Assembly (NCBI RefSeq): GCF_037042905.1
Contig: NC_087245.1
Location: forward strand, 682,001 to 746,000
DNA from: Lytechinus pictus
Taxonomy: Eukaryota
Reading direction: 5' to 3'
Length of the DNA stretch: 64,000 bases
Part shown: one piece after another, positions 1,554 through 40,469 of the stretch
Layout: every line of letters starts with the position of its first letter
Numbering within the stretch: position 1 is the stretch's first letter
Translations under genes and position numbers: made by a program
The notes under the pieces: model-generated
The model's database searches: none
The model's input: the letters and a program-made list of their open reading frames with translations, nothing else
What the model was told of the DNA's origin: nothing

Positions 1554-1862
1554 TTAGGTAATATAAAAGCCTTTCAAATAAATTTCAGGTATAGTAAAAA
1601 AAAAATGCTGCACAAAAACTAATTAGATTAGTTGACTTGCAAATTTGTACTCTTTGACTATTTTCAGTTAGCAGTACATAGAGGTGTATTTTATAACAGA
1701 AGTGTATTTGTGACATCGAGGTGTGTTTGTGACATACTGTATTAAAGCTCACACATGTCTTGCAGTACATGTAAATCAAATCAACCTGTTTGTCTTCAAC
1801 CTAAATTATAGTTATGGATATATTTACGTACATGTCATCTTTTGTTAACTATCCTCCAACAG

Positions 1863-2067
1863 CAAGTGCAGTACTGATGGGTGTAATCGTTGGTGTCATC
1901 ATTGGTATCATAGCTCTGGTTGTGATGAAGCCCTCTATCTATCACATGTGGAGAGTAACATGGATCGTGTGTTTAGTTACTATGGGTATCATGTGGGTTC
2001 TGTTCCTCTATAGCTGTGATGAAGCACCTGTTGATGCATACAGAGAGAGTCCTGGTGAACAGACCAA
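1863..2067 (+). CDS. SLCO/OATP exon (TM8-TM9)
   Basis: ccaacag acceptor, gtaag donor at 2068; two hydrophobic helices followed by LYSCDEAPV. Confidence 0.8.
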
Positions 2068-2629
2068 GTAAGAGTATTTCACAATCCTTCTCTGCCCTTA
2101 AAATGATGTTACACCTTAGTGTTAATCCTGGTAGATGGGTCTTCCACAGTGTACTCAACACCATGCATTTATCATAGTGTTTCTATTTCAATGTAATTAG
2201 AACTTGATTTGAACACTACAGTTATAAAAGTTCTTCTGATTATCCTCTATTCTTCCCTGCATTTGGGATTCATCGATTTGTTGAATTTTTCTTTATTATT
2301 TCAATTATCATACCAGATCAAGATCTATTATTGTTATTTAAGAAACTGTGTAATGTTTGAATGCAAATATCAAGTTTTCACAGAAGTATTGGTGTTTTCA
2401 TTAAGTATCAAACTAAGAATTGATGTTCATGATCATATTGAATTAATGAATGTTGATAGGTTCCTTTTGTCAACCTGTCATTGTCCTGTATTCTTAACTC
2501 TAGTTTGATTTTGACTCTGGTCTAAAGTTGTGGTTTAACTTTAGGTAGCAAATTCTGGAAGTTGTCTCTAACAGCACAAGTACATTTCATCAGCTAAGTT
2601 CGACTCTGGAATCATTTGTAACTGCCTAG

Positions 2630-6079: not shown

Positions 6080-6417
6080 GTGTGTTACCGTCAATCGGCT
6101 ACTTCAGTGCTGTTCTTGGTCAAGCTTGTTCTCTCTGGCAATCTGATCATGAGTTTAGCGGTCAGCATTATACGGATTGCCTCATGTATCATCCTGAAAA
6201 ACATCATTTCTTCTTCATCTCATTGGTTCTCTTTCTCAAGGCTTTTGCTCTTGTATTCTATGGGATCTCATTCAGAGTTACATCAAGATTGAAGCAAGAT
6301 GAAGATGATATATCAGGCAATCGTGATTGGATTGGTTATAATGGTGAGAGAGCGAGCGTTGAGCTTGGTAGGATTGATCAAAGAGGACATTCATCCACTT
6401 CTCCTGCTTTTATCTAA
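6080..6417 (+). CDS. SLCO/OATP terminal coding exon (TM11-TM12, C-tail)
   Basis: ttttag acceptor; GVLPSIGYFSAVLGQACSLWQ...CLMY...TM12, stop at 6417. Confidence 0.88.
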
Positions 6418-9644: not shown

Positions 9645-12600
9645 ATCAAATTAAAGATGAGGAGGATCAAACATCAAATTAGATGTGTCAATATATTTCT
9701 TTTGTTGTTTTAATTTGATGTTTCCTTGTAGATAATTGAATGTGGACTATAAAGCAAGTAACCATTGCTTGGATTCAGTGGATGATTAGTTCTCTTAGTG
9801 AAATTTTAAGACTATCTTTCCTCAGCTTCGCTTTGAAGAGATAGCCACGTTAAAATTGTCTTGACTAATAGTGTGCCTCACCAGTCACCACTTTTACCGA
9901 TGGCAATTACTTGCTTATTTTCTAAGTATGCACACTCAAACATAAGTTACTGTCTTAACAACTTCTTTTGTTTACAATGGGACAGTGCACAGTTGATATC
10001 TTGGGCTTTCATTACCTGAGATTGATTAGGATTAATGGCAGCCCCGGGATGGCAGCCAGTGTTCTTGTGGTCTTAGTGGTAGAATCGGTCTTGGGTAAAA
10101 CAAGATATGTAACATGTTACTTTATTTGAGAAATGAGAGAGGGTGGGGACTGCCATTGAGCAATTGAATCGGATGATATATCGAGATGGATGGATAAAGC
10201 TTTTGATCTTTGCTAATATTAATTCAACTTGGACGATGATTGATCACTATACTTACAAAATATGAGAACAGGCCATTTGTTCAAGTTTGCTATAGACCTA
10301 TTCTATTATTTGCATCGGATTCGTTTGTCCAGTGCTTGTAAACGCTTTTATTGATTTTCCGAAGACAATATACTTTCAGATGAAAGATAATGCAATAATT
10401 ATAATCAATAACCGTTGAGGTTTGCCCAACTAGCCACTGACAAAGCAATTCAATATAAAAGTGGTGTCCGGGAAGGGGTGACCAGGGCAAGTTGCTTTTC
10501 TTTTGAAGGGGTTGGCCAAATTTCGGTATCATTCCAGGGGCTTTTTTTAAGCGCTTTCTGCAGTATAGAACACAACTAAAGCAGTAACATGTATAATCGA
10601 AGTAGTATATTATGATCCTGTATAACATCTTCTTCGGGTTTTTCTTTTTTAACTCGAATCTCATCATTGTGGGGATGGCCGAGGCACACGACCAGTTGTT
10701 AGACCCTATAGGCCTACCCCGGTTGGCGAAAATAGAAGAAAGCGGATGGGGGGTTTTCAGAAAAAAATTGACCGTTGACAGGCATGAAGTTATTTCTTAA
10801 CTTTTAACGAGGTCACTCCCACAGTATGGTAATAAAACATGTTCATTGCACCTTGGAATCAACTTTATAACGTGAAATGAGTGAGATAAAGAATGGTGAA
10901 TTTTACAAGATTATTTCATGGAAAAAATCACATAACGGTTTTCTCAACAAAATAAGACATTTGTTTATGGAATACCTTAATTTTAAATGAATGTGCTTCT
11001 TTTTAGTGTGTTCAAAGTGTGTAAGGTGACCGTGACCTCCTTATTACCCACTCCCCTCCTTAATTACACAGGAATAGCCGTGACTTCATGAATAAACAAG
11101 TTTCCTGTTGCACCTTTCTAGAGATGTCAGCATGAGCAGCGGCAATTCCATTTGGTGTTTATTGCTACAAGAAGTCAATGTGGCTATTTTATCAAAATTG
11201 CTTTGTGTTTTAATTATTGTGTACTAATGTAATTCAACCAAACCATACAGTTGAGCAATTTAAGTGCAAAGTGCCTAATATCATGCAAGCGCTTTGGGAT
11301 AATTTGGGAAAAGCACAGTACATGAATAATAAATAAATAATAATGGTGGATGGAACCAGGGGCGACCCCCCCCCCCCTCCCGTGAAAACAAAAAATGAAA
11401 AAGGCAATAGGTAAATGTGTAAAAAAAAAAAAAAAAAAAAAAGCTTGCCCCCCCCCCCCTATCAAGGAAATCAAGATGATGTGGGGTCAATGACTGTTCA
11501 GCTCACTTGTTTCACATCTATTGGACCGAATGGAGTGATTACCTTTTGCTTTCTTCTTCTTTTCTGCCCCATAACTTTGGAGGAAAACGTGTGACCTCTT
11601 GTGGCCACCCCCTCGGACCCTTTTCTGCCAACAAGGCCCTTTTTCACCTTTAACCAATGCTCAATTTATAAGAAAAATTTGCTCCTTTCAGATACTCAAA
11701 ACAAAATCATTAAACATATTATACCATCCTTGGTTGGTCAAATAGCATGCCACATTCGCGAATGATTAGCGCATTAATCCTGAATTTGAAATAGTGTTTT
11801 TATGATTCAGAGCGTCATTTATTTGACATTTGTCAAGGTTGCCGAATTTAATACGGAATAGATCTATAAAAGTGATTACACGATTGATCTATATACACTA
11901 ATACTTTGCGCAGGTGTCCGTTCCCAAATACAAATTTTGGCACGCCAAATTCATAGAAAAGTGTAAATAATGACTATTGATCAATACAACGATGACAATA
12001 ATCATACGGGTAACAATGAGATCGATAATGAGATTTCAAAAAGAAAATAAGGAATTGTCATTATTATTAATTAAAACTGCACCAAGATATTTGTAATATG
12101 GATTGGACTTGTATTATTACAATGTAAAGAAAATTTTCATTTTCATATTTGTAATATGGATTGGACTTGTATTATTACAATGTTTTGGAACATAAAGTTT
12201 AGCTTGAACTTTCACCTCCTAATTCATTCAGGTTCACTTATTAATACTCAACTCATTTTCCGTTTCGTTCCCTTTCTTCGTCTAAGAAAATGCTAATATG
12301 AAAATATCACATTTTCTTTCTAGGTAAAATATTCGGTATTTCACAGAGGTGTATGTTTGATGTTCTGAGAATTTTTTTTAAAGAATATTTTTAAGATGTA
12401 TTTGATGAGAACAAATATGGAATAGGTGATCCAATTTCATTTCATATACACATGTACGTATATCAGAATAATTAAGAGCTAGGGGGTCACCAAGAAGAAG
12501 GTTTGATGGGGATGCTTGTTCTCGAATGGGTGTAATCAATAACCTTTTCCGAATGACAGTTCAATCACCGATGTACTTGGGGGTTACTTTCCCCGCTCGC

Positions 12601-13352
12601 ATGCGCTCCTCCCCTATTTCACAAAGTGGTATTCTGCATGACGTTTGATAATTACGTTATATTTTAAACACCATCAATAATTCCCTACCGAATTCACTGC
12701 AGATACAATCCATTAGATTTTGCTGCCGTGTTGTTCCTCTCCGTCTCTGGCAAATTAATAGTGCACCATATTCAATAGGCCTACTATTCTTTCCATTTGG
12801 GAATTATAACTCACTAACTTTTGCATTTGAGCAACATAGAAAATAGGAACACTGACGGCACATGCCACGTTAGATGGTATATTTGTATTGATGAAACTCT
12901 CATATTCAAATTAATTACCAGGATTATTCCAGTATTTAATTAGTTGTGTATCTCCATTTATACAGCTGTGAATAAAGGACACCATCATTAAATTTTGTAA
13001 ATATTTATCTTCAAGAGTAAATATTAATCAGCACACCAACTGGAATAAAATCAATCAATGAAATGACGTAAGTTTTTATTTTAATAGATGTAAATCTGAC
13101 GAATGAATAAATTGTGAGAATCTTTTAGGGATCTATCAAAGAGGATATAAACCGAATAATTATCATTTATTTCATCAACATTCATCGGCAGCGACAATAC
13201 GTGCTTTTGAGCAAGTCTAAAGTTTCAGTTTTCATTCCCGCGTGGTATTATTTTGTAAGTAGAGCATATCCTTCGATATCTTTATTATTTCTTGTTAAAA
13301 TGATATAATTTTCAATTGTAAGCTATGCCTATATTATAGGGAAGATAGCAAT

Positions 13353-13472
13353 CAGTGGCGGACCGTGACCCGGAGGAGACATTATTAAAGCATTGGAGGG
13401 GCACAGCATTGTACACAAACATATACAGTACCCCTCCAATCATTGTCTCCTCCGGGTCACGGTCCACCACTG
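13353..13472. mobile_element. 120-bp hAT-type MITE
   Basis: ~29-bp TIR CAGTGGCGGACCGTGACCCGGAGGAGACA; 8-bp TSD ATAGCAAT on both sides. Confidence 0.9.
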
Positions 13473-14331
13473 ATAGCAATAATAATGTAGAATTCTTTTC
13501 CGAACGAGAAAAATCGTACAAAAATATGTAAAAGGAAACGAAGCGGCCAAGCTCACCACAAATGATTTTTTTAAATCTAATAGCATGAATAGTTGAAAAG
13601 GAAGGATCTGTGGATTTTTAGGGCGCAGCTGCAACCCTAACTCTCCCTCCTTTTCGCACGGCCATTATTGGAGACGAAATTTTGCGATTTTTTTTTCTAG
13701 GTATCATTAACTTTTTTTTCTGCTTTTAAGTTGTTATGATATTTATTTTGGCACTATATTCGATAATCTCGACATGTTCCATATTTTGTTATCAAGCAGA
13801 CTTGTGTAAATTTTTCAGAAACTTTTATTAGAAGAGAAACAAGAATTGGGATGAAAACTTGCTGTTCAGAGATATCATATATTTCTGAAAAAAGTATTTT
13901 AAATCCTATCACAAAATTATTAGGTTTTAGGATAACATTAATTGTTCGCTCGCTTCGCTCTCACTCAGTTTTTTTTTGCAGATTTTCCCCGAAACGCAAA
14001 GTCTGGCCTCCTAAAATATTTTGGCTTATTACGCCATTTATTTGTAGTGTCTTAATATTAACTTTATATTGCAATATGTCACAATATATAAGGATTATCA
14101 CTTTCTCCACTTTATCCAAGAAAAAAAAAAAACATAGTTTACATCATAATATAATCGGACGAAGCCTATACGCATACCCTTATATTTTATAAGCTTATGA
14201 TTTGCCAGACAAGTAAGAAAATGTGGCTATCCTGAGCCGCAAATACCATGGCCCTGGAAAGCGGGGCTGCTGTGGGTGCTTCAGCACCCCCTAAATTTTC
14301 CTTGGGGGTGCTGCGTATATTATTCTCCATA

Positions 14332-15945
14332 CAGCGGCGTAACAGGGGTCGGTGGCCAGGGGGGGGGGGGCAAGAGCCAAAAATTTCCCGGTCATATCAT
14401 GGTATGAACAGGCGTAATGGTGTAATGAGGCGACGATTTTGAGGGGGCCAGATATTGTGTATCGGGTAGAATTTATCTTTTAAAAAAAAGTTGCGAGCGA
14501 GCGAAGCGAGTGAGCAAAAATTTTGACATTTTTAAAAACAAAAATCCAATTTTTTGATAGATTTTGACATGATATCCAGAGAATCATATTTTACTCTTCT
14601 CTCTTTCCATTCCTTTTTTGTGGTCTGTACGCCATTGTGAACAGGATTCTTTGCGGCAGTAGCGTGAAGAGTATAAAAAAAAAACGAGGGGCGCAGTATG
14701 GCGCATGAGTTAAAAAGCTGTTTAATATAAGTCCCGAGCGAGCGAAGCGAGCGTGAAAAAAATCACCTTTTCATGAGAATCTAACTTTGAGATATTTTTG
14801 ACATTATATTCAGTAAATAAAATCATATCCTACACTTTTCCTTTGCTTTTCTTTCCTACTTTTTTTTGTCTTGGTTGTAGAACTTTTGGGGGCCATGACC
14901 CAACCCTTCCATACTCATATACGGCAGTGCTATTTCGTTGGGGTCCGGGGCGGAGCCCCCGGAACTTGATATCAAGCCATTTAAACCTCGTAGATTGCCG
15001 CTATTTTTAATCAAATCATGGGTATATACAAAATATAGCTTTTACACAACACATTTATTCAACCTAGTTGCGTAATGAACCAAACATTTTGAGAGGGCAA
15101 AACATAGCAATGTGGGAACATTTGTAAAAAGTCGCCAGCGTGCAAAGCGAGCTGGAAAAAAATTGCCTATTGAAATTAAATCCTAATTATGTGATAGATT
15201 TTTACATTATATTCAGCTAACAACACATTTTATATAATTTGTTTCCATTCAGTTCATTATACGTTGTCTCCTATAATTTATTCAATTTCCTCTTTGGTGT
15301 GGAACCAAGACCCTCCCCCCCCCCCCCCGCCTGTACGCCAGTGATTGAACGTAAAGGTTAATGTAGGAAGGGTCCCTACAGGGGGGCGTTGTAGAGCCAT
15401 TTGAAGGTTATAGATGAAGAGCCCCTACTGCGTGGGGTCTGGGGCAAAGCCCCGGTAGCTTATTTGCATAAAATTTAGTAAGTTTAGGCCCTATAGCACA
15501 ATGTTGTATGCAGTCCATCTTTCTTCCCGCTCTTTATTTTCAATCCTCGGCAGCCCGGTCGTGTTAATTTTTTTGTTCTTGTCCCTTTTCTTTTTTTTCC
15601 AATTTAGCTTTTGACTAATTCCATTCTACCTTTATTTCTCGCTATTATCTGCCATTTTGTCATCTTTTAATTTATTTCCCATCATGCTATTGCATTACAT
15701 AGGCCTATTTCGGAATGATTTGTTCTTTCTTAAATGTTCTTTTGTTCCTTTTTCCGCTTTCCTTCCTTTTCCATTAAAAAATAAATTTTCGACTTCTTTT
15801 CACTTTTCCCTTTCCTTTTCACACTTTCCTTCCCCTTTCCCTTTCTTTCTCCCTCTCTTTTCTTTTTCCCCGTTTTTTTATTTTCCCTGTGAAATCCGCC
15901 AGAAGGGGCAGCTTGCCCCCCTGCCCCCCGCCTGTTACGCCACTG
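14332..15945. mobile_element. composite hAT-type non-autonomous element inserted in an older CAGCACCCC-containing repeat
   Basis: Ends CAGCGGCGTAACAGG / CCTGTTACGCCACTG; 8-bp TSD TCTCCATA (14324-14331, 15946-15953); repeated GCGAGCGAAGCGAG motifs inside. Confidence 0.8.
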
Positions 15946-16333
15946 TCTCCATAAGCAGCACCCCAGGTATTCTGAAAGATGTGTAAAAATGTAACCAAAA
16001 TGACCTTCATTTTGCTTTTCAAATTTCTCGTTGCCAATTTGATCTCCATTTTGTAATAACACCCACTTTTTTTTTGCTTTTGAAATTTACATCACCGCCC
16101 CCAGTAAAAAAATTCAAATCGATATAGGTCCTACAGTTAAAGAAACATAAAATAAGTTATAAGGCTGATGACATAAATTGTTGGGATCGATATCATTGCA
16201 ATCGAAGCCTCTGCTCAATGTTTACATTGTGGTTCTTGTAATCTAGTATCTAAACGATACTTGCCAAAACTTGTAAATCCATATAGGCATATTCATCATT
16301 GATTATTTCTAAGGGTTCCCCTCAGAGTATTAA

Positions 16334-16928
16334 AGGGGAATCCAGCCTTGGCCATAAAATGTTATGTTGGGAAGGAGAAAAATAAATTAAACAGAAAGGT
16401 GAAAGTTTGAAAGAAATCGGACAAGCAATAAGAAAGTTATAGCTGTTTTAAAATTGAGATCACTAATACTATGTAGATTTCAAATTGGCAACTGGGGAAG
16501 TAAATTATGACAAGAGGCAAGGACAACTTTCCCATAGGCCATGTACTTTATAATCAGGGATTTGTGGTTTTCTCTTAAGTACCCATTCCCCTGGGGCAGT
16601 AATCTAAATATAACCCAGGTAGTATATTGTTTTATGTCCTCATGAAAGAAAAATATAATTAGAAATAAAACTTTCAGGAAAAATTACATTTTAGCCATAA
16701 TATGTATTGGAGTACATGAAAGAGTTGTCCTTGCCTAACATCACTATGACATCCCATATGCGGCCAATTTGAAGTCTCCATGGGTATAGTGATTACCAAT
16801 ATTTACAACTTTTAAAAATTCATAACTTTCTTGTTATTTGTCCGATATTGTTCAAACTTTCACCTATCAACTTGTCCGATTTTTCTTTTCCTTATAAAAA
16901 CAAGTTTTCATTTGGGTTGGATTCCCCT
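16334..16928. mobile_element. TTAA-flanked MITE (Kolobok-like AGGGG termini)
   Basis: TTAA|AGGGGAATCCAGCC...GGTTGGATTCCCCT|TTAA. Confidence 0.8.
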
Positions 16929-17216
16929 TTAAGTCATTTTGGTTATCCTTGGTGATTTTGCTAATATCTAATATTTATTCGTATTCATATTTTAATGAGA
17001 TAATGACAAATGTTTGTTTTCTAAACTATATAGGCCTACTGCCTATTATGGGCAATCATTCATGGTTGGTCTACGGGATGATCAATGCTTATTAAAAAAA
17101 TGAATGAATAATTAAAGATCACCCGGCATCCTCTCAATGGCGATCATGTGTTTATCATTTTAATACGTCACCGCAAACCGACTCATATTGAATCCCGGAT
17201 GAAATTTGGAAGGCTG

Positions 17217-17252
17217 TATATATAGTCGTATATTGAAGTTATGAATTCATTT
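17217..17252 (+). promoter_or_regulatory. candidate TATA box plus initiator for the acidic-protein gene
   Basis: TATATATAG at 17217 and Inr-like TCATTT about 30 nt downstream; an alternative splice acceptor (cctacag at 17274) cannot be excluded. Confidence 0.4.
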
Positions 17253-17282
17253 ATCTTGCCTGTCTTGCCTACAGAAACAACC

Positions 17283-17591
17283 ATGAAGTCCACTATGATT
17301 ATCATGATGTTGCTTGGCATTGCTTGTCTAGCAATAAACACAGTGATAGCTGACAGCGACGAATCGGACGAGTCCGTTGATGAAGTCGAGAGCGAATCTG
17401 CAGATGACAGCGATGATGACAGTGCTGCGGCTGCAGGAGTACGCAAACGACGAGATGATAGTGATGAATCCAGTGATACCGTCGATGAGGAGAGTGATTC
17501 CGTCAGTGATTCCGACAGCGATTCCGACAGTAGCGCAGAAGAAGATAATGAAGCAGCTGTTGTGGAAGAAGTGGTTGACATCATCGTTTAA
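17283..17591 (+). CDS. secreted highly acidic Asp/Ser/Glu-rich protein (102 aa) with signal peptide and RKRR convertase site
   Basis: Good start context ACAACCATGA; MKSTMIIMMLLGIACLAINTVIA signal-like N-terminus; mature part almost only D/E/S/A/V except a single RKRR; varied synonymous codons (not a microsatellite); AATAAA at 17904. Confidence 0.8.
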   Translation: MKSTMIIMMLLGIACLAINTVIADSDESDESVDEVESESADDSDDDSAAAAGVRKRRDDSDESSDTVDEESDSVSDSDSDSDSSAEEDNEAAVVEEVVDIIV

Positions 17592-18060
17592 TGAATACCA
17601 AGCAATCTTATCTTATAATTGGCATGTGACATGAAGATCAGTCTAATCTTATATCGAAATTGACATATATTGAAGATCAACTTATTATCAACAGCGCCTT
17701 TTAAATTTCTTCTTTTCCAAGCAAAGTTCAAATTCATGTCTATATTAGAAATGAACATACATTTGGAAAGACTTGAACTATAAGGGTCAATCAAAAATCT
17801 AAGCTACCCAAAGATGTGACCTGAGAATCATGATACCGTACGTGTAGTATTTGGAAGCAAAAAGGCCAATAGTACTAATATATCATTAGAGAACTGGTCG
17901 AAAAATAAATCAAAGAGAAATTACCACGATTGTGACGGAAAATAATGCAGAGTAAAATGTCATTTTTTGTTATCACCCATTGGTATATGCATTTAAGTAC
18001 ACTATCTGGTTAATACGTCGACTAGAGCAAGCGCTGTAGAATTTCAAGCACGATGTTTAA

Positions 18061-18566
18061 AGGGGAAGTTCGCCCGGACGACAAGTTTATTGTAAAAATA
18101 AAAAAAATATTAATAATAATAAATATTGCTGAAGGTTTGAGGAAAATCCATTGAGGATAGAGAAAGTTATTAGATTTGTTTTATTTATGACGTCATGATA
18201 TACGAGCAAGTGCCCTGTTTTAGTCTGTATAGGCTTAATAAGTGCATAACTTTCATTTTTTTGTATAATGGGTTCATGATGACAAAAAAAATATTCTTTC
18301 AGGGGCGGGAGTGAAATGAGCGGGAGGGAAATGATATACTAAATGTACAACAAAACCCTTTTTTTTTCTTCAGAAAATGACATTTGATTTTTTAAATTCA
18401 TGATTACATGGAAGCTGCTCGCATGCATGTGACGTCACAAATAAAAATAATAAAATTCTAATAATTTTTTTAATCTTTGGTGGATTTTCCTTAAACCTTC
18501 ACCAATGTCTTTAAAAAAAATATGCTATTTTTTACAATAAACTTTTTGTCAGGGTGAACTTCCCCT
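18061..18566. mobile_element. TTAA-flanked MITE (Kolobok-like)
   Basis: TTAA|AGGGGAAGTTCGCCCGGAC...GTCAGGGTGAACTTCCCCT|TTAA with long imperfect arms. Confidence 0.85.
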
Positions 18567-18580
18567 TTAAGCACGTCACT

Positions 18581-19897: not shown

Positions 19898-22478
19898 ATT
19901 TTAGATCGTTGAAAAATATAGCGAAGAATCTTTCAATCTGAAACTGTCTGCCGTTGATTGGTCAGATTTAACCCAATGCACTGACGTAAATAAGGCTTGG
20001 TCAGTTTTTCAAAATACTTTTATTTCAACGTTGAATATAATAGCGTCTCAAAAACGGATTAGAATTAAACAGAGATAAGAAAACTGAATGACTAAAGATA
20101 TTATTTCTCTTATTCGAGAAAGAAATGTGGCGTATAAAAAATGAAGAAAAATCTAAACGAAAAGATACAAGAAATATGGTTCAAAGAGAGGTGAAAAAGG
20201 CAAAATTAGAATACCTACAAAATAAAATAGAAGAAAATAAAAATGATTCTAAAAGACTTTGGCAGAATCTAAAAAGTTTGGGATTAAAAAAGAAAAATGG
20301 AAAGGACCAAGAATTCGTTTCAATTGACGGAGAATTGTGTCATGATAAGATAACTATTTCCAATGAATTCAATTCCTATTTTACAAATGTCGCAGCTACG
20401 TTGGTAGATAAACTTCCATCTTGCAAAGACATTTTCAGTGCAGACAGTGAGAACATTCGTGAATTTTATGAAAAAAAGGTATAAGCCAAGATAAATTTGA
20501 ATTATTACCTGCTAGTGATCAATTCATTTTTAATGAGTTGCGTAAATTAAATGTATCAAAAAAGCACTGGGATAGATTTGATACCTGCTGAATTTCTAAA
20601 AGTTTGTACAAACCATTAAATTTCTTGATAAATCTATCTATCTTTACTAGCACTTTCCCAGAGGATATGAAAATTGCAAAAGTAACTCCTATTCATAAGA
20701 AGAAAGTATTAAACTGCTGTTGAAAACTATAGACCTATCAGTGTTTTAAGCATAGTATCCAAAATTCTAGAAAAGGCGGTATGTGTTCAGATCGAAAAAT
20801 ATTTTAAAGAAAATGATATGATTTACGAATATCAGTCTGGTTTTCGACATGACTATTCGACTGAGACATGCCTTATTCACTTGACTGATTATCTGAGAAC
20901 TAATATTTCTAAGGGACAATTCGTTGGGATGGTACTCCTAGATCTTCAAAAAGCATTTGATACAGTTAATCATGGCATCTTATTGAAAAAATTACAAATA
21001 ATGGGTTTTAACCAGGCTACTGTAGGTTCAAATCCTACTTGTCGAATCGACATCAAGTAGTGGCTATTCGCGATATTCGTTCCAAAATTATGCCTATAAC
21101 GCGTGGAGTTCCACAGAGAAGTATTTTAGGCCCAATTCTATTTTCAACTTATATCAATGACATGTCTATTTGTAAAAAAGCTGACTGTAAATTATTATTG
21201 TATGCAGATGATAGCGTACTATACTTTGTTCAAATTCCAACCCAAAATTTGTCGATTGGATGACTGATAATAGATTATCGTTACACTTAGGCAAAACCGA
21301 GAGCATTCTGTTTTGTTCTAAAAGTAATTATAAAACTTCATTTGAATTTGAAGTATCATACAATAATAAGATAATTCAGAGGAAAGAATCTGTAAAGTAT
21401 TTAGGCATTGAGTTGACTAGCTCCCTTTCATTTTCATCTTTAGTAGAATCAATCGTAAAAAAGGCGAATGCCCGTTTAAAATTTCTGTACAGGTATCAAA
21501 GTTGTATGGATCAAAAAGCAAGGCGTATTCTCTGTTTTGCTCTTATTCAGAGTTTATTTGACTATGCTAACCCTGCTTGATTTAGTGGCATAAGCTAACT
21601 CGATAAAAAGAAGTTGAAAATTATACAGAATAAAATGGTTAGATTCATTAACTGTTCTGGTCCCAGAACCCATGTACACCGAACTCTCTGGAGCAGGTTT
21701 TCTTGAAGTCAACAAAAGATCAAAACAGCTTATTTTGCACCACGTGCATAAAATCTATCACAATAGATCGAATCATTACATTGGATCAAATCGAGTTACC
21801 GAATTACATAACTATAATACAAGAAACAGCCATTTCAATTTTTGCTTACCAGAAAGGGTGCAGTATTGGCAACTCCTTTTATTAAAGTGCTATTAAACAT
21901 TGGAATTCCCTTCCCAATGATACAAAGGAAATAGGAAACTTTTTGCATTTTAAGAGGAAATTGAAAGAATATCTTTCACTTGGGAGTCATAAAGAGAAGA
22001 TGCAAATGATATGTTGTACGGTTGATTTAGCCTGAATACTGACCACGTTCTTTTCTATTCTCTACCAAGTATCTCTTCCTTCTATTTTCCTCTTCGTGTT
22101 GTTATTGTTGTCGCCGTTTTTGTTGTTGTTCTTCTCCTTATTTATTATTTTTCTTCCTCATCCTTTTCTTCCTCCCCTATCTTCTTCTATTCCTCCTCCT
22201 CCTTCTCCTTCTTTTCTTCTTCTTCTTCGTTATATTCTTGTATATATTATCTATATATCTTATTTATTGGTAATAGTAAATTCTGATCTTTTTTCGTCAT
22301 TTTTTAATATGTGAATATATATAATTTTACCATTTTATTATCTTAATTCTGTATGTCGAGGACCCCACTGGAAATAAGCTCTCGAGCTTTCGTGGGTCAT
22401 CCTGTGCAAGCCTGTTGTTTTAATGCTACTGTATATATGTTAAGGTGACTTGCCAAATAAAATCAATCAATCAATCAA
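19898..22478 (+). mobile_element. 5'-truncated, decayed non-LTR retrotransposon (CR1/L2 group) ORF2 reverse transcriptase plus 3' UTR
   Basis: RT motifs across frameshifts: YRPIS, QSGFR..STET, LDLQKAFDTV, GVPQ.SILGP, YADD, KYLG; 3' hairpin at ~22358-22403; AATAAA followed by (ATCA)n tail ending 22478. Confidence 0.93.
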
Positions 22479-23188: not shown

Positions 23189-23264
23189 ATGTCGATCGGT
23201 ACGATAGGTTTTGTTGGGGCTGGAAATGTCGCGCTGACGCTCACAAAAGGTCTTCTTTCTGCAG
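23189..23264 (+). CDS. PYCR3: PYCR exon 1 (Rossmann nucleotide-binding motif)
   Basis: MSIGTIGFVGAGNVALTLTKGLLSA-G, donor gtaagt at 23265. Confidence 0.9.
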
Positions 23265-23372: not shown

Positions 23373-24736
23373 TACCTCGAGCGAAGTTCGTGCAGGCTCC
23401 ACTCCACTTCACTACCGGTACACTACGCTTCACCTACCCGGGTAGACAGGAATAACCGTCGTTTCTGGGGATTTATTCAACAATTTCTGACATTTTACTG
23501 TAATCCCCATTTACCGACGGTAGGGTGTACGTGTGGGCTCGCATGTGTTCTCATTCCCTCCCTTTTGTCAATTCACAGTCCAAATGTAATTTTAAAACAT
23601 CGAATTTACAATCTAAGGATGTATAAACAACAAACTTTTAAAACGTGATATTTCAATGTTTAAATACTTTAAACGATATAGATGAAAAAGGCATGAAAAA
23701 TATACTTTACCGATGTTTAATTGGTTTGAACACGATAAAAATGGTCAAAATGGCAGCCCAACTATAAAATATTTACAAACGAACGTCAACAATCACGAAT
23801 GTGATATCGATATTGCTTTCGATATTATACGATCTGCTCCATATGCGAACGAAACCGAAGATAAACGATACTAGTTATACTAGTACTAGTACTAGTTATA
23901 ATCGCGATATATCGATTCGAGACATTAAGTTAATAACGATAATGACGTCATTCAAGATGGCAACTTGCAAGAAAAACCGTCAGGTCAGGTGAAAATGTCT
24001 TAGATGACAGATTTCTCAATCATCCAGAGGATTTTTTTCAATAACTCCGGCCCAAGGTATGCAATTACTTAAGTTATTTTTATAAAATAGCTGTATTATT
24101 TCAAGCATCGCGATTGGTCAATACGCGTCACATGACATCCAACTTTTTTTGTGCACTGCACGGTAGTGCAAAAGGTGTGCAACGAAAATTGACATTGCAC
24201 GCTCGTGCAAACCAGTGCGGTAAAGTCCAACAAAACTGTACTGTAACTTTTTAAAAAATTGTTTCTGTGTTGCTATTTTATAAAACAAATAATGCACTTG
24301 CTCTGTCGTGCGTAAAAGTAATTGCAGAGAAAGCTCGGTTTCTTCAGATGGAGCACACTGGGCACTCGCCGCAAGCGGCTCGTGCACAGTGCGACTCCTA
24401 TCTAAAGAAACCTCGCGTGCTCTGCATTTCCACTAACGCACTCGGCTGCATGCATTATTTGTATAATATTTCCCTGATAATGGAAACCATGAAACTTTCA
24501 ATTTTGCTTAAAAAACAGTTTTAAATCGCGATCTATAAAACGCTAGTTCACTATACGTTGGCTGTAGGTACGGGGCCCCATCCCCTTCAGTCTATGTATG
24601 GTGAGTGGAGCCAACGTAGTTCAGCGGAACAACCAAAATACAGAGACTGAAGCTTTTGGTCTACTACCCGGGTAGGTGGAGCGTAGTGTAGCGGTAGTGA
24701 AGTGGAGTGGAGCCTGCACGAACTTCGCTCGAGGTA
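23373..24736. mobile_element. non-autonomous DNA transposon with ~73-bp TIRs and 9-bp TSD
   Basis: TIR TACCTCGAGCGAAGTTCGTGCAGGCTCC...CCCGGGTAG mirrored at ~24664-24736; TSD GTGTAACGT at 23364-23372 and 24737-24745. Confidence 0.9.
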
Positions 24737-25931: not shown

Positions 25932-26106
<175 letters not shown>

Positions 26107-26739
26107 TTCCTTCTTTCATTCCTTTTCTCTTATCCCGTTTTTTTTGGGTGAAATCCACTGGACCGGGGATCAAGGGCCAGCCTGCATGCCCCCTGCGGTT
26201 TACGCCTCTGCCGTGGATGTAAGCTATATATATACGCATGATCTTAATCTTCATTATGATTCAAACTATATAGAGGCGCATCCAAGATTTTCCAAATTAA
26301 GTAGGGGGGGGGGGCCGGGTGAATTTTCTCAAGTAAAATTTGACAACTCCCAAAAAAGGTTCTTACTAAAAAAAAAAAACCGGTCATTATATTGTCTCGC
26401 GTAAAGTTTGACTAGTACAAAAAAAATGGTCACTCAAAATGAAAGTCATTTTGTCCGCGTAATATTCGGCAAGCCCCCCCCCCCCACAAAAATAAGAAAA
26501 GGGAAAGTCATTTTGTCCACGTGATATTTGGCAACCCCCCCCCCAAAAAAAAAAAAAGGTTTTAACTATAGCAATGATCAAAGGTAATTTTGTCTCGCGT
26601 AAAATTTGACAAATGAAAAAAAAGATTGTCACTAAAAAAATGAAGGTAATTTTTTCCCACGTAAAATATGGCAAGCCCCCCCCCAAAAAAAAAACGGAAA
26701 ATGGTGTTTAACTAATAGTGATCGAAGGTCTTTTTGTCC

Positions 26740-27732
26740 CCCATGGGTGGGGCATGATTAGCCTGGAGGCGTCTGGGGGAGTGAAACTAATATACTGTAC
26801 GTATGGTCACTCCCCTAACGCCTGGCATTGTGAGGTATAGGCTCCTACGTACCGAGGGAAAAGGCAACTATAAAAATGCGCCAAACTGCTAGTTATGTTT
26901 AGAATCTGAGGTCACGACTGCTGTACATGGGTAAAAATATTGGTTGGCAACGTTTGGCAAAAAATGGATAGTTATGGTTACAAAATGACGAATAAATTAT
27001 ATGAAGTAATAAAAGTAGAAGAGAGTTTACTTACACTTGTTGACATCGCCATCTTTGATCCTTTGTAATGCAACCTAGTTACTTGACGCGTATAGAGGGC
27101 GGCAAAATCATGAGCGGTGCTAGATTAAAAAGTGCTAAAATGTCCCGCTTCAACCACTGAACTATAGATACGTGGAAGTCGTGTACACCCAAGCAAAACA
27201 TCGCCGGCGAACTCGATAAGTCACGTGACCGCCGCCATTTTGCTAGGTCAATTGTTCGAGAACGCGCCGTAGAAGGCAAGATGCAATATGTTTTCTCTAT
27301 GTATTTCTAGTTCAGTGGTTGAAGCGGGACATTTTATCACTTTTTAATCTAGCACCGCTCATGATTTTGTCGCCCTCTATACGCGTCATGTAACTAGGTT
27401 GCATTAACAAAGGATCAAAGATGGCGATGTCAACAAGTGTAAGTAAACTCTCTTCTACTTTTATTAATTCATATCATTTTGGCGTCATTTTGTAACCATA
27501 ACTATCCATTTTTTGCCAAACGTTGCCAACCAATATTTTTACCCATGTACAGCAGTCGTGACCTCAGATTCTAAACATAACTAGCAGTTTGGCGCATTTT
27601 TATAGTTGCCTTTTCCCTCGGTACGTAGGAGCCTATACCTCACAATGCCAGGCGTTAAGGGAGTGACCATACGTACAGTATATTACATTCACTCCTTAGA
27701 CGCCTCCAGGCTAATCATGCCCCACCCACGGG
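26740..27732. mobile_element. fold-back / long-TIR element (arms ~425 bp, spacer ~140 bp)
   Basis: 26740-27164 is the near-perfect reverse complement of 27308-27732. Confidence 0.9.
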
Positions 27733-28595: not shown

Positions 28596-29080
28596 TAGCC
28601 AGGCGGCTTCTAGAGAGTAAAAATCATTTACTAACGTAAGGTTACTCTCATACGAAGCCAGGCAGTCCTCCCCATTCATCTGCGTGTACCGCAAAAAACC
28701 CTGAAACTTTCGCCCCCGAGATTTCTACTTTCCTTCTAAAAGATCTAGCTCTAAATCATGTAAATGGGATAAAACTTCATTTCTGACATTTCTACGCTCT
28801 CGTTGTTATTTTTAAAACAAGAATTCATCAAAAAAATGAAAAAATATTGTGAAAAGACGGAAGAGACTTGCCCGATGTTTACGCCGCCATCTTGTTTCTT
28901 ATTGTACTTCCCCAACGTTACGTACGCGAGTGTCGCGTAACGTTGGGGAAGTACAATAACAAACAAAAGTTTCAGGGTTTTTTGCGGTACACGCAGATGA
29001 ATGGGGAGGACTGCCTGGCTTCGTATGAGAGTAACCTTACGTTAGTAAATGATTTTTACTCTCTAGATGCCGCCTGGCTA
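28596..29080. mobile_element. MITE with ~115-bp TIRs (TAGCCAGGCGGC...) and 8-bp TSD
   Basis: TSD CTTTTGCC at 28588-28595 and 29081-29088; TIRs nearly identical; internal 24-bp hairpin at 28899-28959. Confidence 0.92.
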
Positions 29081-33549: not shown

Positions 33550-36500
33550 ATATTGACAAATTTGCCTTTGCCCAATGATCTGTACCTGAATGGAATAAAC
33601 TCCCTCTTCAAATAGTTAATGCAGTTTCGCTTGACAGCTTCCAAAAGCTTCTGCAAAATCACCTTGAAGAAAAATGGGGGTCGAACGTACAAAAAGGATG
33701 ATCATTTTATGGAATTGCTCTAAGTTCATTTATTTATTTATTTTTTTTTTTCAGAAAGAACATATGTTTACAAAAGGTTCATATACAAAAAAATACAGAT
33801 TCACAATAGTATCATATAAATGGAAAAAAGCAACTAAAATTTAATAAATAAAAAAAAAACTATTTAATTAATTATAGATTTTTTAAGTTGAAAATTGTGA
33901 ATAGATTAATTGGTATTTTCCACAAATTGTTCAATACAAAATACTTAAAAAGCCAGTCCTAGAAATACGAAATTCAATAATCAATTAATACAAAGCCAGA
34001 ATATTATATTATGAATTGTCAAGCTGGAAAACAGACTATTAATGAAACTTTGAATAGATAAATCCATATTTGCCACAAATTATGCAATAGAAAAATGTTG
34101 ATTAATTAAAATCCAGTACTACAAAAATTTATACAAAATTCAACAGTCAATTAGTAAGTAAAATGAGGAAATATTACATTAAAAATCAAATCTATATTTA
34201 TACCTGAACAGATTACACCCAAAGGAATTTGCTGGTAGTTTATATTGAGATATAATATACAAATATACCGTACCAGGCTTTGAGTAAGTATCGCAGGAAT
34301 TATTCATCTGAGGTTGGACTGGCATTACTATTTTTCCCAAGCGGCAAAGCCCCAAGGGGAAAATAGTAATTTTGCACAGAACAACCTAGGATGAATAATT
34401 CCCTCTATAATTTCGAAATAAAGGCCTGGTATGTTTGTTTTATATCCTACTTTAATAAGTGAGAGCAATAGATCTTGACAATCTAGTTCTTGTAATCGTA
34501 GTTCATCCTTTTTAAATCTGAATCAAGATAACCCTGCTCTGACTGACCTACTTTACCTGAAGCCATGCGCTCAGCGCGCGGAATGCGTATTAGTGCTTGT
34601 GCCATCATGATCTGTGACGTCGATGATGAAGTAGTGCACTATTCCATCATTGACGTCATGGAATAGCAATTTTTCTTCAGTGGGCGTTACATTTTCAACA
34701 TCACAAAAGAGTGAGAATATGTTTGGTCACATGATGCTATTTAAACCAATCAGTATACATGATTTAATTTCTATGCATTGAAATGCATAGAAATTTCACA
34801 AAAATCATTTAGAGTCACTTGGGATGATAACAATTAGATATTGTGTTTTTATGTCCTTATCAAGCGGACAATAGATGGAATGCTAGATTGATAATACCTA
34901 CCTGTAGCAGTCCTACATTTAGGTTCCTGTAGTAGGTGAGAGTTCCGTAAGACCGTAACTGTCTTCCAGACACAGATTGACAAGATTGGGGGAGAAAGTC
35001 ACATCAATTGGCAGGATGACCTGAGGAGATCATGCAAAAAAGAAAGAAGAATACTGTCTCGGTGGAATCTGAGTGATTTGAGATTGAGAAATGATTGATC
35101 CTATAAACTTGCTTCTGCATCCTGTCAATGTCGTTGAATATCACAGATTTTTATATCACGGTCGCAACATATTGACAAATTTGCCTTTGCCCAATGATCT
35201 GTACCTGAATGGAATAAACTCCCTCTTCAAATAGTTAATGCAGTTTCGCTTGACAGCTTCCAAAAGCTTCTGCAAAATCACCTTGAAGAAAAATGGGGGT
35301 CGAACGTACAAAAAGGATGATCATTTTATGGAATTGCTCTAAGTTCATTTATTTATTTATTTTTTTTTTTCAGAAAGAACATATGTTTACAAAAGGTTCA
35401 TATACAAAAAAATACAGATTCACAATAGTATCATATAAAATGGAAAAAAGCAACTAAAATTTAATAAATAAAAAAAAAACTATTTAATTAATTATAGATT
35501 TTTTAAGTTGAAAATTGTGAATAGATTAATTGGTATTTTCCACAAATTGTTCAATACAAAATACTTAAAAAGCCAGTCCTAGAAATACGAAATTCAATAA
35601 TCAATTAATACAAAGCCAGAATATTATATTATGAATTGTCAAGCTGGAAAACAGACTATTAATGAAACTTTGAATAGATAAATCCATATTTGCCACAAAT
35701 TATGCAATAGAAAAATGTTGATTAATTAAAATCCAGTACTACAAAAATTTATACAAAATTCAACAGTCAATTAGTAAGTAAAATGAGGAAATATTACATT
35801 AAAAATCAAATCTATATTTATACCTGAACAGATTACACCCAAAGGAATTTGCTGGTAGTTTATATTGAGATATAATATACAAATATACCGTACCAGGCTT
35901 TGAGTAAGTATCGCAGGAATTATTCATCTGAGGTTGGACTGGCATTACTATTTTTCCCAAGCGGCAAAGCCCCAAGGGGAAAATAGTAATTTTGCACAGA
36001 ACAACCTAGGATGAATAATTCCCTCTATAATTTCGAAATAAAGGCCTGGTATGTTTGTTTTATATCCTACTTTAATAAGTGAGAGCAATAGATCTTGACA
36101 ATCTAGTTCTTGTAATCGTAGTTCATCCTTTTTAAATCTGAATCAAGATAACCCTGCTCTGACTGACCTACTTTACCTGAAGCCATGCGCTCAGCGCGCG
36201 GAATGCGTATTAGTGCTTGTGCCATCATGATCTGTGACGTCGATGATGAAGTAGTGCACTATTCCATCATTGACGTCATGGAATAGCAATTTTTCTTCAG
36301 TGGGCGTTACATTTTCAACATCACAAAAGAGTGAGAATATGTTTGGTCACATGATGCTATTTAAACCAATCAGTATACATGATTTAATTTCTATGCATTG
36401 AAATGCATAGAAATTTCACAAAAATCATTTAGAGTCACTTGGGATGATAACAATTAGATATTGTGTTTTTATGTCCTTATCAAGCGGACAATAGATGGAA

Positions 36501-36788
36501 TGCTAGATTGATAATACCTACCTGTAGCAGTCCTACATTTAGGTTCCTGTAGTAGGTGAGAGTTCCGTAAGACCGTAACTGTCTTCCAGACACAGATTGA
36601 CAAGATTGGGGGAGAAAGTCACATCAATTGGCAGGATGACCTGAGGAGATCATGCAAAAAAGAAAGAAGAATACTGTCTCGGTGGAATCTGAGTGATTTG
36701 AGATTGAGAAATGATTGATCCTATAAACTTGCTTCTGCATCCTGTCAATGTCGTTGAATATCACAGATTTTTATATCACGGTCGCAAC
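33550..36788. repeat. near-perfect direct tandem duplication of ~1.62 kb (33550-35168 / 35169-36788)
   Basis: The copies look identical by eye except one A in a homopolymer (ATATAAATGG versus ATATAAAATGG). Confidence 0.95.
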
Positions 36789-38668
36789 AATCATATCCCA
36801 TTTGAGGTTAGATTGAAGAATTACTCCTAATAATGTCAAGCTACTAACTGCAGCTAATTTAGCATTGGCAATCTGGAGCGTCGTAAACTGTGCCTGTTTG
36901 GAGAATGAGATGTTCATAACTGAACATTTGGATGGGATGGGTTTAATGTCATTTGCTTCACTCCAATGGACGAATTGATCATGCTGCCCTTGGAGAGTGG
37001 ATGGTTCACTAACACAACAGATTTTGGTCAAGCTGAAATCATCAACATATTTCCACCTGTTGTTGCAATCCGTCATGGCGTCGTAAATCATGGCAAGAAA
37101 TAGCAATGGCCCTAATATTGTGCCCTGGGGGACAACACATGTAACTCCCAATATGGAAGAACCAACTTAGATAGCTTCTTTGCATCCATCAAGGAAACCA
37201 CAGATCACTGGAAAAAGACTGATCTGGTAAATGTGTGGTGGAACTGCCAGACACATTACTAAATTGCTTTTGGTCAATCACAGGAGAGAGGTCATGACTG
37301 TGCCTTCTTGAGATGAAAGTTTCCATCACTCTTGAAAATACTGCAGTAATAGAGATAGGCGGCAGGTCTGCCAGTTGTGAAACTTGTTGTTTCTTTGGAA
37401 TGGGAGTAATCAGTGCTCTTTTTCCAACAGGAAGGATAGCTCCCAGTATGAAGAATAACATTGAAATATGATCGAAAGTGGCTCTGCCAGCTCCAACGCG
37501 AATTCCCTGATAAGTTTGATAGGGCTATCCCCCGGCATGATTGCCTTGGAAGCATTAAAATTTCACAAGATAATGAGCACTTCATGTGCATGAATCGTAA
37601 GTGGTCTTGAAGAGGAAGGTAGGTAGGATGGATGGTAAGGATGCCAGATTTGATGATAGAAGCTGGCTACTAACCCCAGCGAAGTGCTGATTGACCCTTG
37701 TAGCTTTCTGTGAGTCATTGTGGCCAAAGCAGGTTGGTAACTTAAGCGAGGCTTTGATGACTCCAGCCATGCTCCAGATCTGTTGATGCCATAGGGAAGA
37801 TTCACTTTTCTTTAGCTCTTCAACCCTCTGAACGTAGAACGATTCCTTGCACTTTGATGTTTCTCTTTGAAGTTTGAACTAGATTCTGTACCTTTCAAAA
37901 CACCTCACCATTATCAGAATCATAGGCCCGCTGTCGTTTACTGATAAGATCTTTGATACGGTTTGTGATCCAAGGTTTGTTAGCTGACTTTTGGTGAGAG
38001 AGGGCATCCAGAACTTTTAATGACGTTAGATTAAGAGAGTTGAGATGACCCTATCATCAATACAGTTTGATGATCTGAGTTTGCTATAGGAACCTTGATA
38101 ACAGGTTCTCCATAATGCCCTGGATGATCTGTAAATATCATATCTAAGATGCGATCATTCCTAGTGGGTTGCTTGACCATCCGTGATAAACTCGGGTGTG
38201 TCGCAAACTCATCAACGTGTAGATCGTTAATCCCCATGATCATAATAGATGAATCTGGATGAGTGGTTCTAATATCCCCCATAATGATGAGATGGTTAAT
38301 AATGTCATCATGGTATTGAGTATGAAGAGGTGAGTACAGGTACACCACACAAAGAGAATGACATTTCCTCTAAAGCATTCAGATTAATTTTATTCCAGAT
38401 TTTTTCAAGATGAGACAAGATGGACAAGGTCAGGTTCATAGGCTACAGGTTCTAGATCATCTCTTAAATAGAGATCAATGCCCCCACCCCGCTCTGCAGT
38501 TCTGTCCCGATGAAAAAGATTGAATCCTTGAATAGTATTGGCTAAAGTTGGATTCAAATCACTTAACCAAGTTTCGGTTACACTGATTATATCAACATTG
38601 TAATAACCAGTAGTTGCACACATTTCATCCAACTTCCTGTTCATAGATCGTATATTAGTCAGCATGGT
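36480..38668 (-). mobile_element. decayed LINE ORF2 (APE endonuclease plus reverse transcriptase)
   Basis: NIRSM, DIISVTETWL, RGGG, PTR..RILD, SDH (APE); ITPIPK, PISIT, VPQGTILGPLLF, YVDD, LLGV (RT); many frameshifts and stops; 3' piece repeated at ~34860-35168 by the duplication. Confidence 0.9.
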
Positions 38669-39079
38669 TGATTGATAGTTCTGTTTACATCTTGTATCAA
38701 CTACTCATTGCACAATCCTCAATTAGCATTTGATCTCAAGGGAATGTTTCTAAATAAAGAGAGAGTTTGTGGTTTTCCAATCCTGACCTCCACCAACAGA
38801 GGGCCTCACAGAAATATGCTCAAAATTAAAGTTTTGAGCACTCTGGTGAATAAAAAAGACATACTCAGAATATATTAATTCATGCATTACTTAGTATTTG
38901 ACATGCATGTGCATTGTTTTATTGTGGAGTTTGCTAGTCTCTTTCCTTTTCTTAAATAAAATTGATTGTAATGCAGCATAAAATTGAGTTTTTTGCCCTT
39001 GCTTAGTCCAGTTTAGGCATAATACAAAAACAAGTATTTCAGTTAGTAATGTTTTAAATATATCTTTGTATTCATTTAG

Positions 39080-39144
39080 GTGCTGTAGGAGCAGAGAGGA
39101 TTATTGCCAGTGCACCATCAGATAGGAACAGAAGAGTTATTGGG
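39080..39144 (+). CDS. PYCR3: PYCR exon 2
   Basis: catttag acceptor; GAVGAERIIASAPSDRNRRVIG; gtaatt donor. Confidence 0.88.
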
Positions 39145-40289
39145 GTAATTTATTTTGTTGTCTTCCTCACTCTTGTTTTGGGAATGGGAACACCCCTGCT
39201 TACCTTGGTGATATCATTCAGAGAAACACATGTAAAATCCAAGACCTGTAGTGATGTAATTTTTGGGAAAATGGCACAAAATTGTTGAACAACCTTCTCC
39301 ATGATATCAGATCAATACAGACAGATTCAAATCTGTATTAGAAAGATACCTTTTTAAAAAGCAGCTGTATTAGCCCTACAAAAAAATTTAAACAAATCTT
39401 CCACACATATAAAGACTATTTATATGGTATTGTGCGTCTCTAAGAACTATTATGATTATGTAGTAACTAGTAGAAAATGCAGATAATTTCATGCTTACAA
39501 GTCTCTTAATCATGCGTTGAAATCATGTAAGCCATACAAATCTCTTTACTTGGATAAATTTAGGTTTATCTACTTAATGTACACCTCACCACAAATAGAG
39601 AGTCAACATTGAATATTGTTGTAATATTATATAGTGAATATTCAGGGGGAAAATTTGCTAAATTGAGATTGGCATCATCATGGTTTGACCTGTAAATCCC
39701 TAAATTTAGCATATATGCTCACATAGTGATGTTTCCAGTTATGATTGTTGTTAATGGCTGTAATATACCTCCACCCCAAATAATACTGAAGATTGATAGC
39801 AAGTTTTATTCCTTCTTTAGAAATATTATTGAATGCTTCATCAAACGTTAACCAGGTTTCTTATTCAGGAAGACTTGTTTTACATAATTTCTGTGACATA
39901 TTTGATATTAGCTATTCAAAATACCACAATTTTCAGTAGCTAATAACAGGAATATTATTATGCTAGTGATATTATTTGAGTCTAATGTAGAATGCAAGAA
40001 AACATGAATATCTTGACTAAATCATTACTTTCTTTTCCAAAACCAGATACTTGTTAATATCTGTTCATCTGAAGTTTGCTACCAAACATCAAATTTCAAC
40101 AATTGACCAATTTAGGGGTTCCAAACTTCCAATAATGATTTTTTTTACTAATGGTTTGATCTGACAACTTTTCATGTTCTTTATTGGTTCAGAATCATAA
40201 GGGAATGTCAAATAATGATTTTCATAAAGTGGTCCCAGGCTTCTACATACAAAGTTTTAACCAAGCTCTCTGTTTTATTACTGCTGTAG

Positions 40290-40469
40290 GATCTTGGAGC
40301 AAAGACAACGAGCAGTAACAAGCAGATCTTTGAGACCGCTGACACCATCTTCTTGGCCACCAAACCAAACTTAGTTGGCACTGTCATCAAAGAAATAGCT
40401 CCGTTTTTAACAAGAGATCATATCTTCATATCCTTGCCTGCTGGTATCTCATTAGATTATCTAGAAAGT
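40290..40469 (+). CDS. PYCR3: PYCR exon 3
   Basis: DLGAKTTSSNKQIFETADTIFLATKPNLVGTVIKEIAPFLTRDHIFISLPAGISLDYLES; gtaag donor. Confidence 0.92.

Follow-up and report, generated by a model that had tools for sequence, protein, structure and literature searches.

A small acidic gene between an SLCO-like gene and PYCR1

Within the window, by which we mean the whole 64-kb stretch of DNA analysed here from the sea urchin Lytechinus pictus, a laboratory model species, we found an intact open reading frame (ORF) of 102 codons plus stop at positions 17283-17591 (+). This acidic gene stands alone between an SLCO-like gene and PYCR1. On its left, Pfam OATP matched at 1805-2068 (+) with an E value of 1e-4, below the cut-off, marking an exon of an SLCO/OATP-like transporter; we take the last exon of that gene to lie at about 6080-6417 (+), judging by the C-termini of OATPs, and no Pfam match falls there. 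On its right, Pfam places PYCR domains at 40.3-48.1 kb. Identity of the final PYCR exon is 100% with the L. pictus protein and 90% with that of S. purpuratus, and five exons of the L. pictus PYCR protein map to the window at 97-100%. The Pfam scan covered 91 selected frames (295 frames of at least 55 aa, 108 of them passing a composition filter). The SLCO-like gene and PYCR1 are not skeletal genes, and they give no functional pointer.

Layout of the predicted precursor

Translation confirmed an earlier description of the ORF as a signal-like stretch of 23 residues followed by acidic peptides of 30 and 45 residues, here called A and B (Table 1). The N-terminal stretch reaches a hydropathy of 2.88 in its best 12-mer (aa 5-16), and by the -3/-1 rule the signal peptide would be cleaved after VIA; the start codon lies in the context aaccATG. 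The predicted mature chain of 79 aa contains 21 D, 13 E and 18 S, with one Gly, no Leu and no Cys, His or aromatic residue. Peptide A accounts for 9 D, 5 E and 7 S, and peptide B for 12 D, 8 E and 11 S, including a DS run. RKRR matches the furin-type consensus R-X-K/R-R. As had also been noted before, it supplies all the basic residues of the mature chain, and the chance that these four residues would be contiguous is 5e-5.

No transmembrane anchor was found in the mature chain, where the best sampled 19-residue hydropathy is -0.3, and from its sequence the tail of peptide B appears too short and too acidic to serve as one. The chain is expected to be disordered. The pI of 4.05 that Biopython returns for the precursor is the floor of the program and was disregarded.

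Table 1. Features of the acidic gene, in window positions.
Feature	Positions	Strand	Basis or remark
Runx-like (ACCGCA) and Ets-like (CCGGAT) motifs	17171..17200		just upstream of the TATA box; suggestive only
TATA box TATATATAG	17217..17225	+	pattern scan; 32 to 24 nt before predicted +1
Inr-like TCATTT, predicted +1 at 17249	17247..17252	+	pattern scan; start predicted
CAG preceded by a polypyrimidine tract, possible acceptor of an intron in the 5' UTR	17250..17274	+	alternative exon start 17275
Predicted signal peptide, aa 1-23	17283..17351	+	hydropathy; cleavage site predicted
Acidic peptide A, aa 24-53 (30 aa)	17352..17441	+	3.0 kDa, net -14, 6 predicted Golgi-casein-kinase sites
RKRR, furin-type R-X-K/R-R site, aa 54-57	17442..17453	+	sole basic residues of the mature chain
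Acidic peptide B, aa 58-102 (45 aa)	17454..17588	+	4.7 kDa, net -20, 4 predicted kinase sites
Hydrophobic Val/Ile-rich C-terminal tail of peptide B	17553..17588	+	12 aa including three acidic; not a transmembrane helix
TAA stop	17589..17591	+	translation
First AATAAA after the stop, candidate poly(A) signal	17904..17909	+	313 nt downstream; weak

The ORF departs from chance expectation

The ORF is the sole stop-to-stop frame in the 64-kb window with at least 10 D/E in 25 residues, and no second copy or local paralogue of it was found within the window. Its D+E content is 33%, as against 8-16% for the most acidic ATG ORF of at least 80 aa when the window was simulated 30 times with an order-5 Markov model. 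The only DNA tandem repeat that Tandem Repeats Finder sees in the ORF is a 12-bp unit repeated 3.2 times at 17493-17531 (39 bp), so the ORF is not a microsatellite.

These results bear on the idea that the ORF is non-functional, whether as a chance or decayed frame, as the shadow of an antisense frame or as the leader of a transposable element. An antisense Ser/Leu frame of 133 aa (17183-17584) is indeed open across the ORF, the same strand carries a LINE fragment 2.3 kb further downstream, and no homologue or annotation was found. However, the open antisense frame is explained by the strong G bias at the first codon position of the ORF (58/103). The transposon leader is opposed by the TAA at the end of the ORF, by the lack, in every frame across the window, of an NPGP 2A-type motif and by the other repeats that lie between the ORF and the LINE. 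Moreover, a signal peptide, a single RKRR, a promoter and this composition coincide far beyond chance, and we consider a non-functional ORF very improbable.

Promoter signals and gene models

The TATA box and Inr that had been reported upstream of the ORF are present at canonical spacing. The pair formed by TATATATA at 17217 and TCATTT is one of two such pairs on both strands of the window, and when the 133 bp preceding the ATG were shuffled by single bases 20000 times the pair gave P 0.0004, a value qualified by the pattern having been picked after the site was seen. The reported downstream AATAAA is likewise there, as a weak signal, since the motif is common in the surrounding A+T-rich DNA. 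Among 11 motifs scanned, with the Runx, Ets and Alx1 motifs taken in their general consensus forms, CCGGAW was counted 9 times and TGYGGY 58 times across the window; within 300 bp of the promoter there is no palindromic Alx1-type site.

An acceptor-like site ending at 17274, 8 nt before the ATG, overlaps the same 34-nt stretch as the promoter signals. With 13/17 pyrimidines, compared with 11-13 at six SLCO/PYCR acceptors that we took to be real, it is as strong as the real acceptors in the window; comparable sites occur at 0.9 per kb. If its CAG (17272-17274) were used, the ORF would be the last exon of a longer gene. Non-coding upstream exons would leave the protein the same under another promoter, while coding ones would turn the hydrophobic stretch into a membrane anchor. 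The frame is open back to 17226, and nine GTRAG donor-like sites in 9700-17240 could serve such exons. Against this longer gene stand the TATA box and Inr spaced canonically directly upstream, the good start context and the outcome of the protein searches, which found no longer protein containing the ORF. In addition, the ESM Atlas contains the 102-aa form and not the 116-aa form, a record of unstated origin that reflects calling only, not protein production. Between 17249 and 17930 there is no GTRAG donor; the coding part is therefore probably a single exon, and no downstream anchor exon is indicated. On balance we judge the longer gene quite unlikely. In both gene models translation would begin at 17283, except where a further exon upstream is coding; the in-frame ATG that precedes it, at 17241, lies outside both transcript models.

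Word shares for 16900-18100 were 0.56 and 0.52 in two contig-level runs of uncertain kind among the 13 runs listed. The predicted transcript would give a share of 0.53-0.55, a value that a partial DNA assembly could match, and these shares were not counted as expression evidence; nor were the shares of 0.06-0.18 seen in seven runs, of which four came from a second organism.

Peptides A and B resemble each other at the protein level

We found that 17/27 aligned residues are identical between A and B. Their alignment scored 77 against 47 +/- 6 for shuffled sequences (P 0.0002), and the likeness persisted for the acidic cores alone (P 0.0025) and in an N-anchored test (P 0.004). Both peptides start with DSDES and continue with VDE, ES and DSD blocks, and it is the N-terminal 28 aa of B that resemble A. 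Their DNA agrees at 44/81 positions. The codons differ at 13 of the 17 shared residues, where 10.4 synonymous differences are expected (P 0.14), and the serine codon class is the same in 4/6 cases (P 0.34), which gives no support for common descent. The likeness thus lies at the protein level and is not recent DNA slippage, since the DNA agreement is low and the codons behave as in unrelated sequences. It would fit an old duplication kept at the protein level or convergence, and the similarity could be that of convergent low-complexity sequence; the codon-level test leaves no DNA trace of a duplication either way.

Searches for relatives and for a published description

No homologue was confirmed among 170 near-length and 3690 longer candidates (E <= 10), in searches that see called proteins only and discount low-complexity sequence. 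An exhaustive search of 1.84 billion representatives gave a single match, to aa 34-79 at 34%, in an 1889-aa repetitive protein, which we rejected as compositional likeness. Neither of two forms of the protein was found by exact look-up in a collection of 15 billion proteins, although L. pictus PYCR is present there, and none of 594 pattern matches in metagenome contigs was confirmed. The 102-aa protein matched no Pfam family at cut-off. Pfam RXLR (15.4 bits against a cut-off of 26.9) and PFF1_TM were rejected as below cut-off, an ESM Atlas cluster of cytomegalovirus UL22A (0.78) fell under the bar of 0.9, and the structure rows of the same atlas are meaningless at a pLDDT of 0.36. By orphan we therefore mean unannotated in the collections searched, not absent from other urchins.

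Five peptide motifs of the precursor had no match in the open-access literature, and none of its motifs occurs in four supplements of PMC7351957 or in nine supplements of the spicule proteome paper PMC2909932. A search of the open-access literature by topic found no description of this gene. That the ORF had earlier not been recognised as a named gene agrees with these protein, Pfam, exact and motif searches. Going by its sequence, the ORF apparently encodes a small secreted precursor with an unusual two-peptide layout, real-looking and undescribed.

Predicted phosphorylation and processing

The Golgi casein kinase FAM20C recognizes S/T-X-D/E/pS (PMC3416761). Phosphorylation by Fam20C had been proposed for the precursor on the basis of S-x-E sites, and only four such strict sites are present. 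The wider S/T-x-D/E consensus is matched at nine candidate sites, or ten with priming (six in A and four in B); the DSDSDS run (S71-S81) falls outside the kinase consensus. The tooth matrix table of S. purpuratus scores Furin_1 and Fam20c_1 as present in tooth powder and another Fam20C in the intact tooth (PMC2909932), so that a related urchin does have the processing enzymes at a site of mineral. Once processed, A and B would contain no K or R and hence no tryptic sites.

Comparison with known acidic mineral-associated proteins

P16/UTMP16 is the closer analogue of the precursor in composition, and diatom silacidin precursors are the closer analogue in layout. UTMP16 of L. variegatus teeth is phosphorylated, binds apatite and sits at the mineral front, and its Ser/Asp stretch was proposed as the mineral contact (PMC2758014). 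The precursor is like it in coming from the same genus, in being small with a signal sequence and few or no tryptic sites, and in its Ser/Asp-rich acidic region with SD and SSD motifs predicted to be phosphorylated. Unlike the precursor, UTMP16 has a transmembrane anchor, a cytosolic tail and a Gly-rich N-terminal part (PMC2758014), whereas the precursor has a single Gly in its mature chain and, at its centre, an RKRR by which soluble peptides would be set free. The UTMP16 stretches taken from PMC2758014 are all absent from the precursor, and P16 was not returned at E <= 10 in searches that low complexity blunts. Identity with P16/UTMP16 was ruled out, as the ORF has no transmembrane anchor and no GTRAG donor leading to an anchor exon.

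This comparison also indicates how such peptides could have been passed over. The account of L. variegatus teeth in PMC2758014, as far as it was available, left other phosphorylated acidic bands unidentified, and the extraction used a membrane with a cut-off of 3,500, near the size of peptide A. Skeletal proteomes of S. purpuratus were obtained with a cut-off of 1000, gels and trypsin (PMC2909932, PMC2614417), and P16 escaped them, a shortage of tryptic sites being one possible reason (PMC2909932). The absence of A and B from published proteomes therefore says little either way, because P16 was missed as well and A and B have no tryptic sites.

Silacidins derive from a repetitive precursor that yields D/E-rich, serine-phosphorylated peptides controlling mineral (PMC4557024), each of about 25 aa (PMC11733937). 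Like the silacidin precursor of Thalassiosira pseudonana, the precursor described here combines D/E/S-rich units with an Arg-containing processing site and short (about 25-45 aa), Ser-rich polyanions. Silacidins differ in acting on silica with polyamines, not on calcite, in being cut at RXL and not at RKRR, and in having many repeats instead of two. Their activity on mineral requires phosphorylated serines, for which the precursor has the nine to ten predicted consensus sites. The RXL motif is absent from the precursor, where RKRR is followed by DD and the mature chain has no Leu. With this motif lacking, another mineral and no homologue found, we rejected membership in the silacidin family and assume convergence.

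The SIBLINGs (DSPP, DMP1, OPN, MEPE/ASARM) share with the precursor that they are secreted, acidic and Ser/Asp-rich with Golgi casein kinase sites, that DS runs occur as in DSPP, and that activity is expected from released fragments. Unlike them, the precursor has a furin-type site, comes from an invertebrate and shows no homology; its length is at most about one third of theirs. Membership in this family, with which the earlier note had drawn a comparison, did not hold, as the precursor has no N-x-S/T and no RGD, the integrin-binding motif. Each SIBLING carries an integrin-binding motif (PMC3416761). High expression in bone and teeth is a further mark of the family.

Phosphodontin, a tooth phosphoprotein of S. 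purpuratus (Glean3:18919), is likewise secreted, very acidic and built of repeats, with an Asp-rich part (PMC2830187). It differs in its 35 Glu-rich repeats of 11-12 residues ending in Lys and its length of >400 aa, and its EISSGEGEQPK-type repeat (PMC2830187) is absent from the ORF, which excludes identity. Spicule matrix proteins SM30/SM50 contain a domain of the C-type lectin-like class (PMC2909932); the ORF is not one of them, with no C-type lectin-like Pfam match (E <= 1) and no mature Cys. Coral scleritin with a furin-cut acidic propeptide was dropped as an analogue, as the parts of PMC3365975 that were available do not support it.

A putative source of two mineral-tuning phosphopeptides

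The best explanation in our view is a lineage-specific precursor that would release two soluble, Ca/Mg-binding phosphopeptides tuning skeleton or tooth mineral. We hold it to be evenly poised between right and wrong, its biomineral role being argued from composition and analogy. Transcription would start from the TATA/Inr promoter, whose motifs are observed, and the product would enter the ER and lose aa 1-23, as hydropathy predicts. A Fam20C-type kinase may then phosphorylate up to about 10 Ser/Thr in the Golgi, adding to the -14/-20 charge, and a furin-type cut after RKRR, followed by trimming of the basic residues, would yield polyanions of 3 kDa and 4.7 kDa. By analogy, these peptides could bind Ca2+/Mg2+ and lend stability to amorphous calcium carbonate or adsorb to calcite as it grows; the tail of peptide B might mediate self-association or docking to the matrix, while peptide A would stay soluble. 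The most likely site of action is the tooth or the adult skeleton.

For this reading we counted an anatomy far from chance, a host that is a heavily calcifying sea urchin, the likeness of A and B, the chemistry of UTMP16, the Furin_1 and Fam20C of the tooth and the precedent of silacidins. Against it we counted the lack of relatives in protein searches, the non-skeletal neighbours, the missing Alx1-type palindrome, the DSDSDS run outside the kinase consensus and the lack of a match in the proteome supplements; for a core skeletal gene, moreover, one might expect L. variegatus or S. purpuratus to have an annotated orthologue. D/S/E-rich secreted proteins also exist outside minerals. What endures of the earlier interpretation is a secreted furin-site precursor in a sea urchin with no named match; SIBLING membership falls away.

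The same layout could belong to a granin-like granule polyanion, cut at its basic site in the dense-core granules of neurons, gut, immune or adhesive cells, which would bind Ca2+ and condense or neutralise cationic cargo, and whose peptides may signal. A signal peptide, one tetrabasic site and an acidic disordered chain make up the layout of granin and neuropeptide precursors, in which two related peptides per precursor are common. In such precursors, however, the acidic parts mostly serve as spacers flanking an active peptide, and this chain has nothing besides them. RKRR is preceded by Val, not by Gly, so that no amidated peptide would form, and neither A nor B has a Cys, aromatic or basic residue, nor was any Pfam family matched at cut-off. 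S. purpuratus has 38 neuropeptide precursor genes (PMC6209648), one of which may be a match. We regard a granin-like role as unlikely.

Nor do we think it likely, to much the same degree, that the peptides form a soft-tissue extracellular polyanion, be it one that inhibits calcification or buffers ions in the coelomic fluid, the gut or the epidermis, or one that forms part of an adhesive, the egg coat or the hyaline layer. Composition sets the chemistry and not the tissue, and the chemistry required here is the same as for mineral. Phosphorylated ASARM-type peptides inhibit mineral (PMC3416761), and both the absence of skeletal neighbours and that of an Alx1-type palindrome agree with a soft-tissue role. 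On the other side, the characterised Ser/Asp-rich Lytechinus protein, UTMP16, sits at the mineral front (PMC2758014), and the Ets-like and Runx-like motifs beside the promoter weakly favour the skeleton.

Returning to the mineral-tuning precursor, its wider form would be that sea urchins independently evolved a silacidin-like system, in which a furin-processed precursor releases small, diffusible D/S/E phosphopeptides, a soluble A and an amphiphilic B, to the space where mineral forms. We offer this only as a tentative and rather doubtful proposal. If true, A and B would belong to those acidic phosphoproteins of urchin tooth and skeleton that have yet to be named, having been passed over for their lack of tryptic sites, their size of 3-5 kDa and their seeming absence from protein databases. 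Acidic phosphoproteins are central to models of amorphous calcium carbonate stabilisation and of high-magnesium tooth calcite, and few have been identified; two short peptides amenable to chemical synthesis would make this question directly testable. The system would further be another instance in which the cut-and-release layout known from diatom silacidins arose by convergence. If the function holds, the precursor would, by analogy, join the known acidic Ser/Asp mineral-associated phosphoproteins as a variant; if it is expressed elsewhere, it would be one more small lineage-specific secreted protein.

Gene models and repeats elsewhere in the window

Beyond the SLCO-like coding exons, an A+T-rich stretch extends to an AATAAA near 9640 and may be a 3-kb 3' UTR of that gene. 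The PYCR1 gene (+) occupies 23189-23263 and 39080-48101. Its first exon, to which the first 25 residues of the S. purpuratus protein map at 96%, is followed by a perfect donor (CAG|GTAAGT), and the first intron spans about 15.8 kb. Nothing in the 262-aa L. pictus database protein (P0004) matches 23189-23263, and this model probably lacks the true first exon. The L. variegatus protein P0010 shows 61-85% identity per exon, below that of S. purpuratus (70s-96%), and by its sequence is probably a PYCR paralogue; Diadema has two PYCR1-like proteins.

Inside the first intron of PYCR1, 33550-36789 holds a head-to-tail duplication of 1.62 kb with 99.9% identity, which is either very recent or an assembly artefact. 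Three broken LINE fragments, with Pfam matches to reverse transcriptase and one to endonuclease, lie at about 19900-21900 (+), 36770-38700 (-) and 43510-45730 (-). MITE-like inverted-repeat elements were found at 26740-27732, 28596-29080, 23373-24736, 18054-18573, 16330-16932 and 54326-54906, the longest with arms of 433 bp at 95.8% identity; two of them flank the acidic gene, each less than 0.5 kb away. Finally, a 61-bp minisatellite is present in 10 copies at 50450-51071, and a (CTTT)47 microsatellite at 25932-26121 yields spurious long ORFs.
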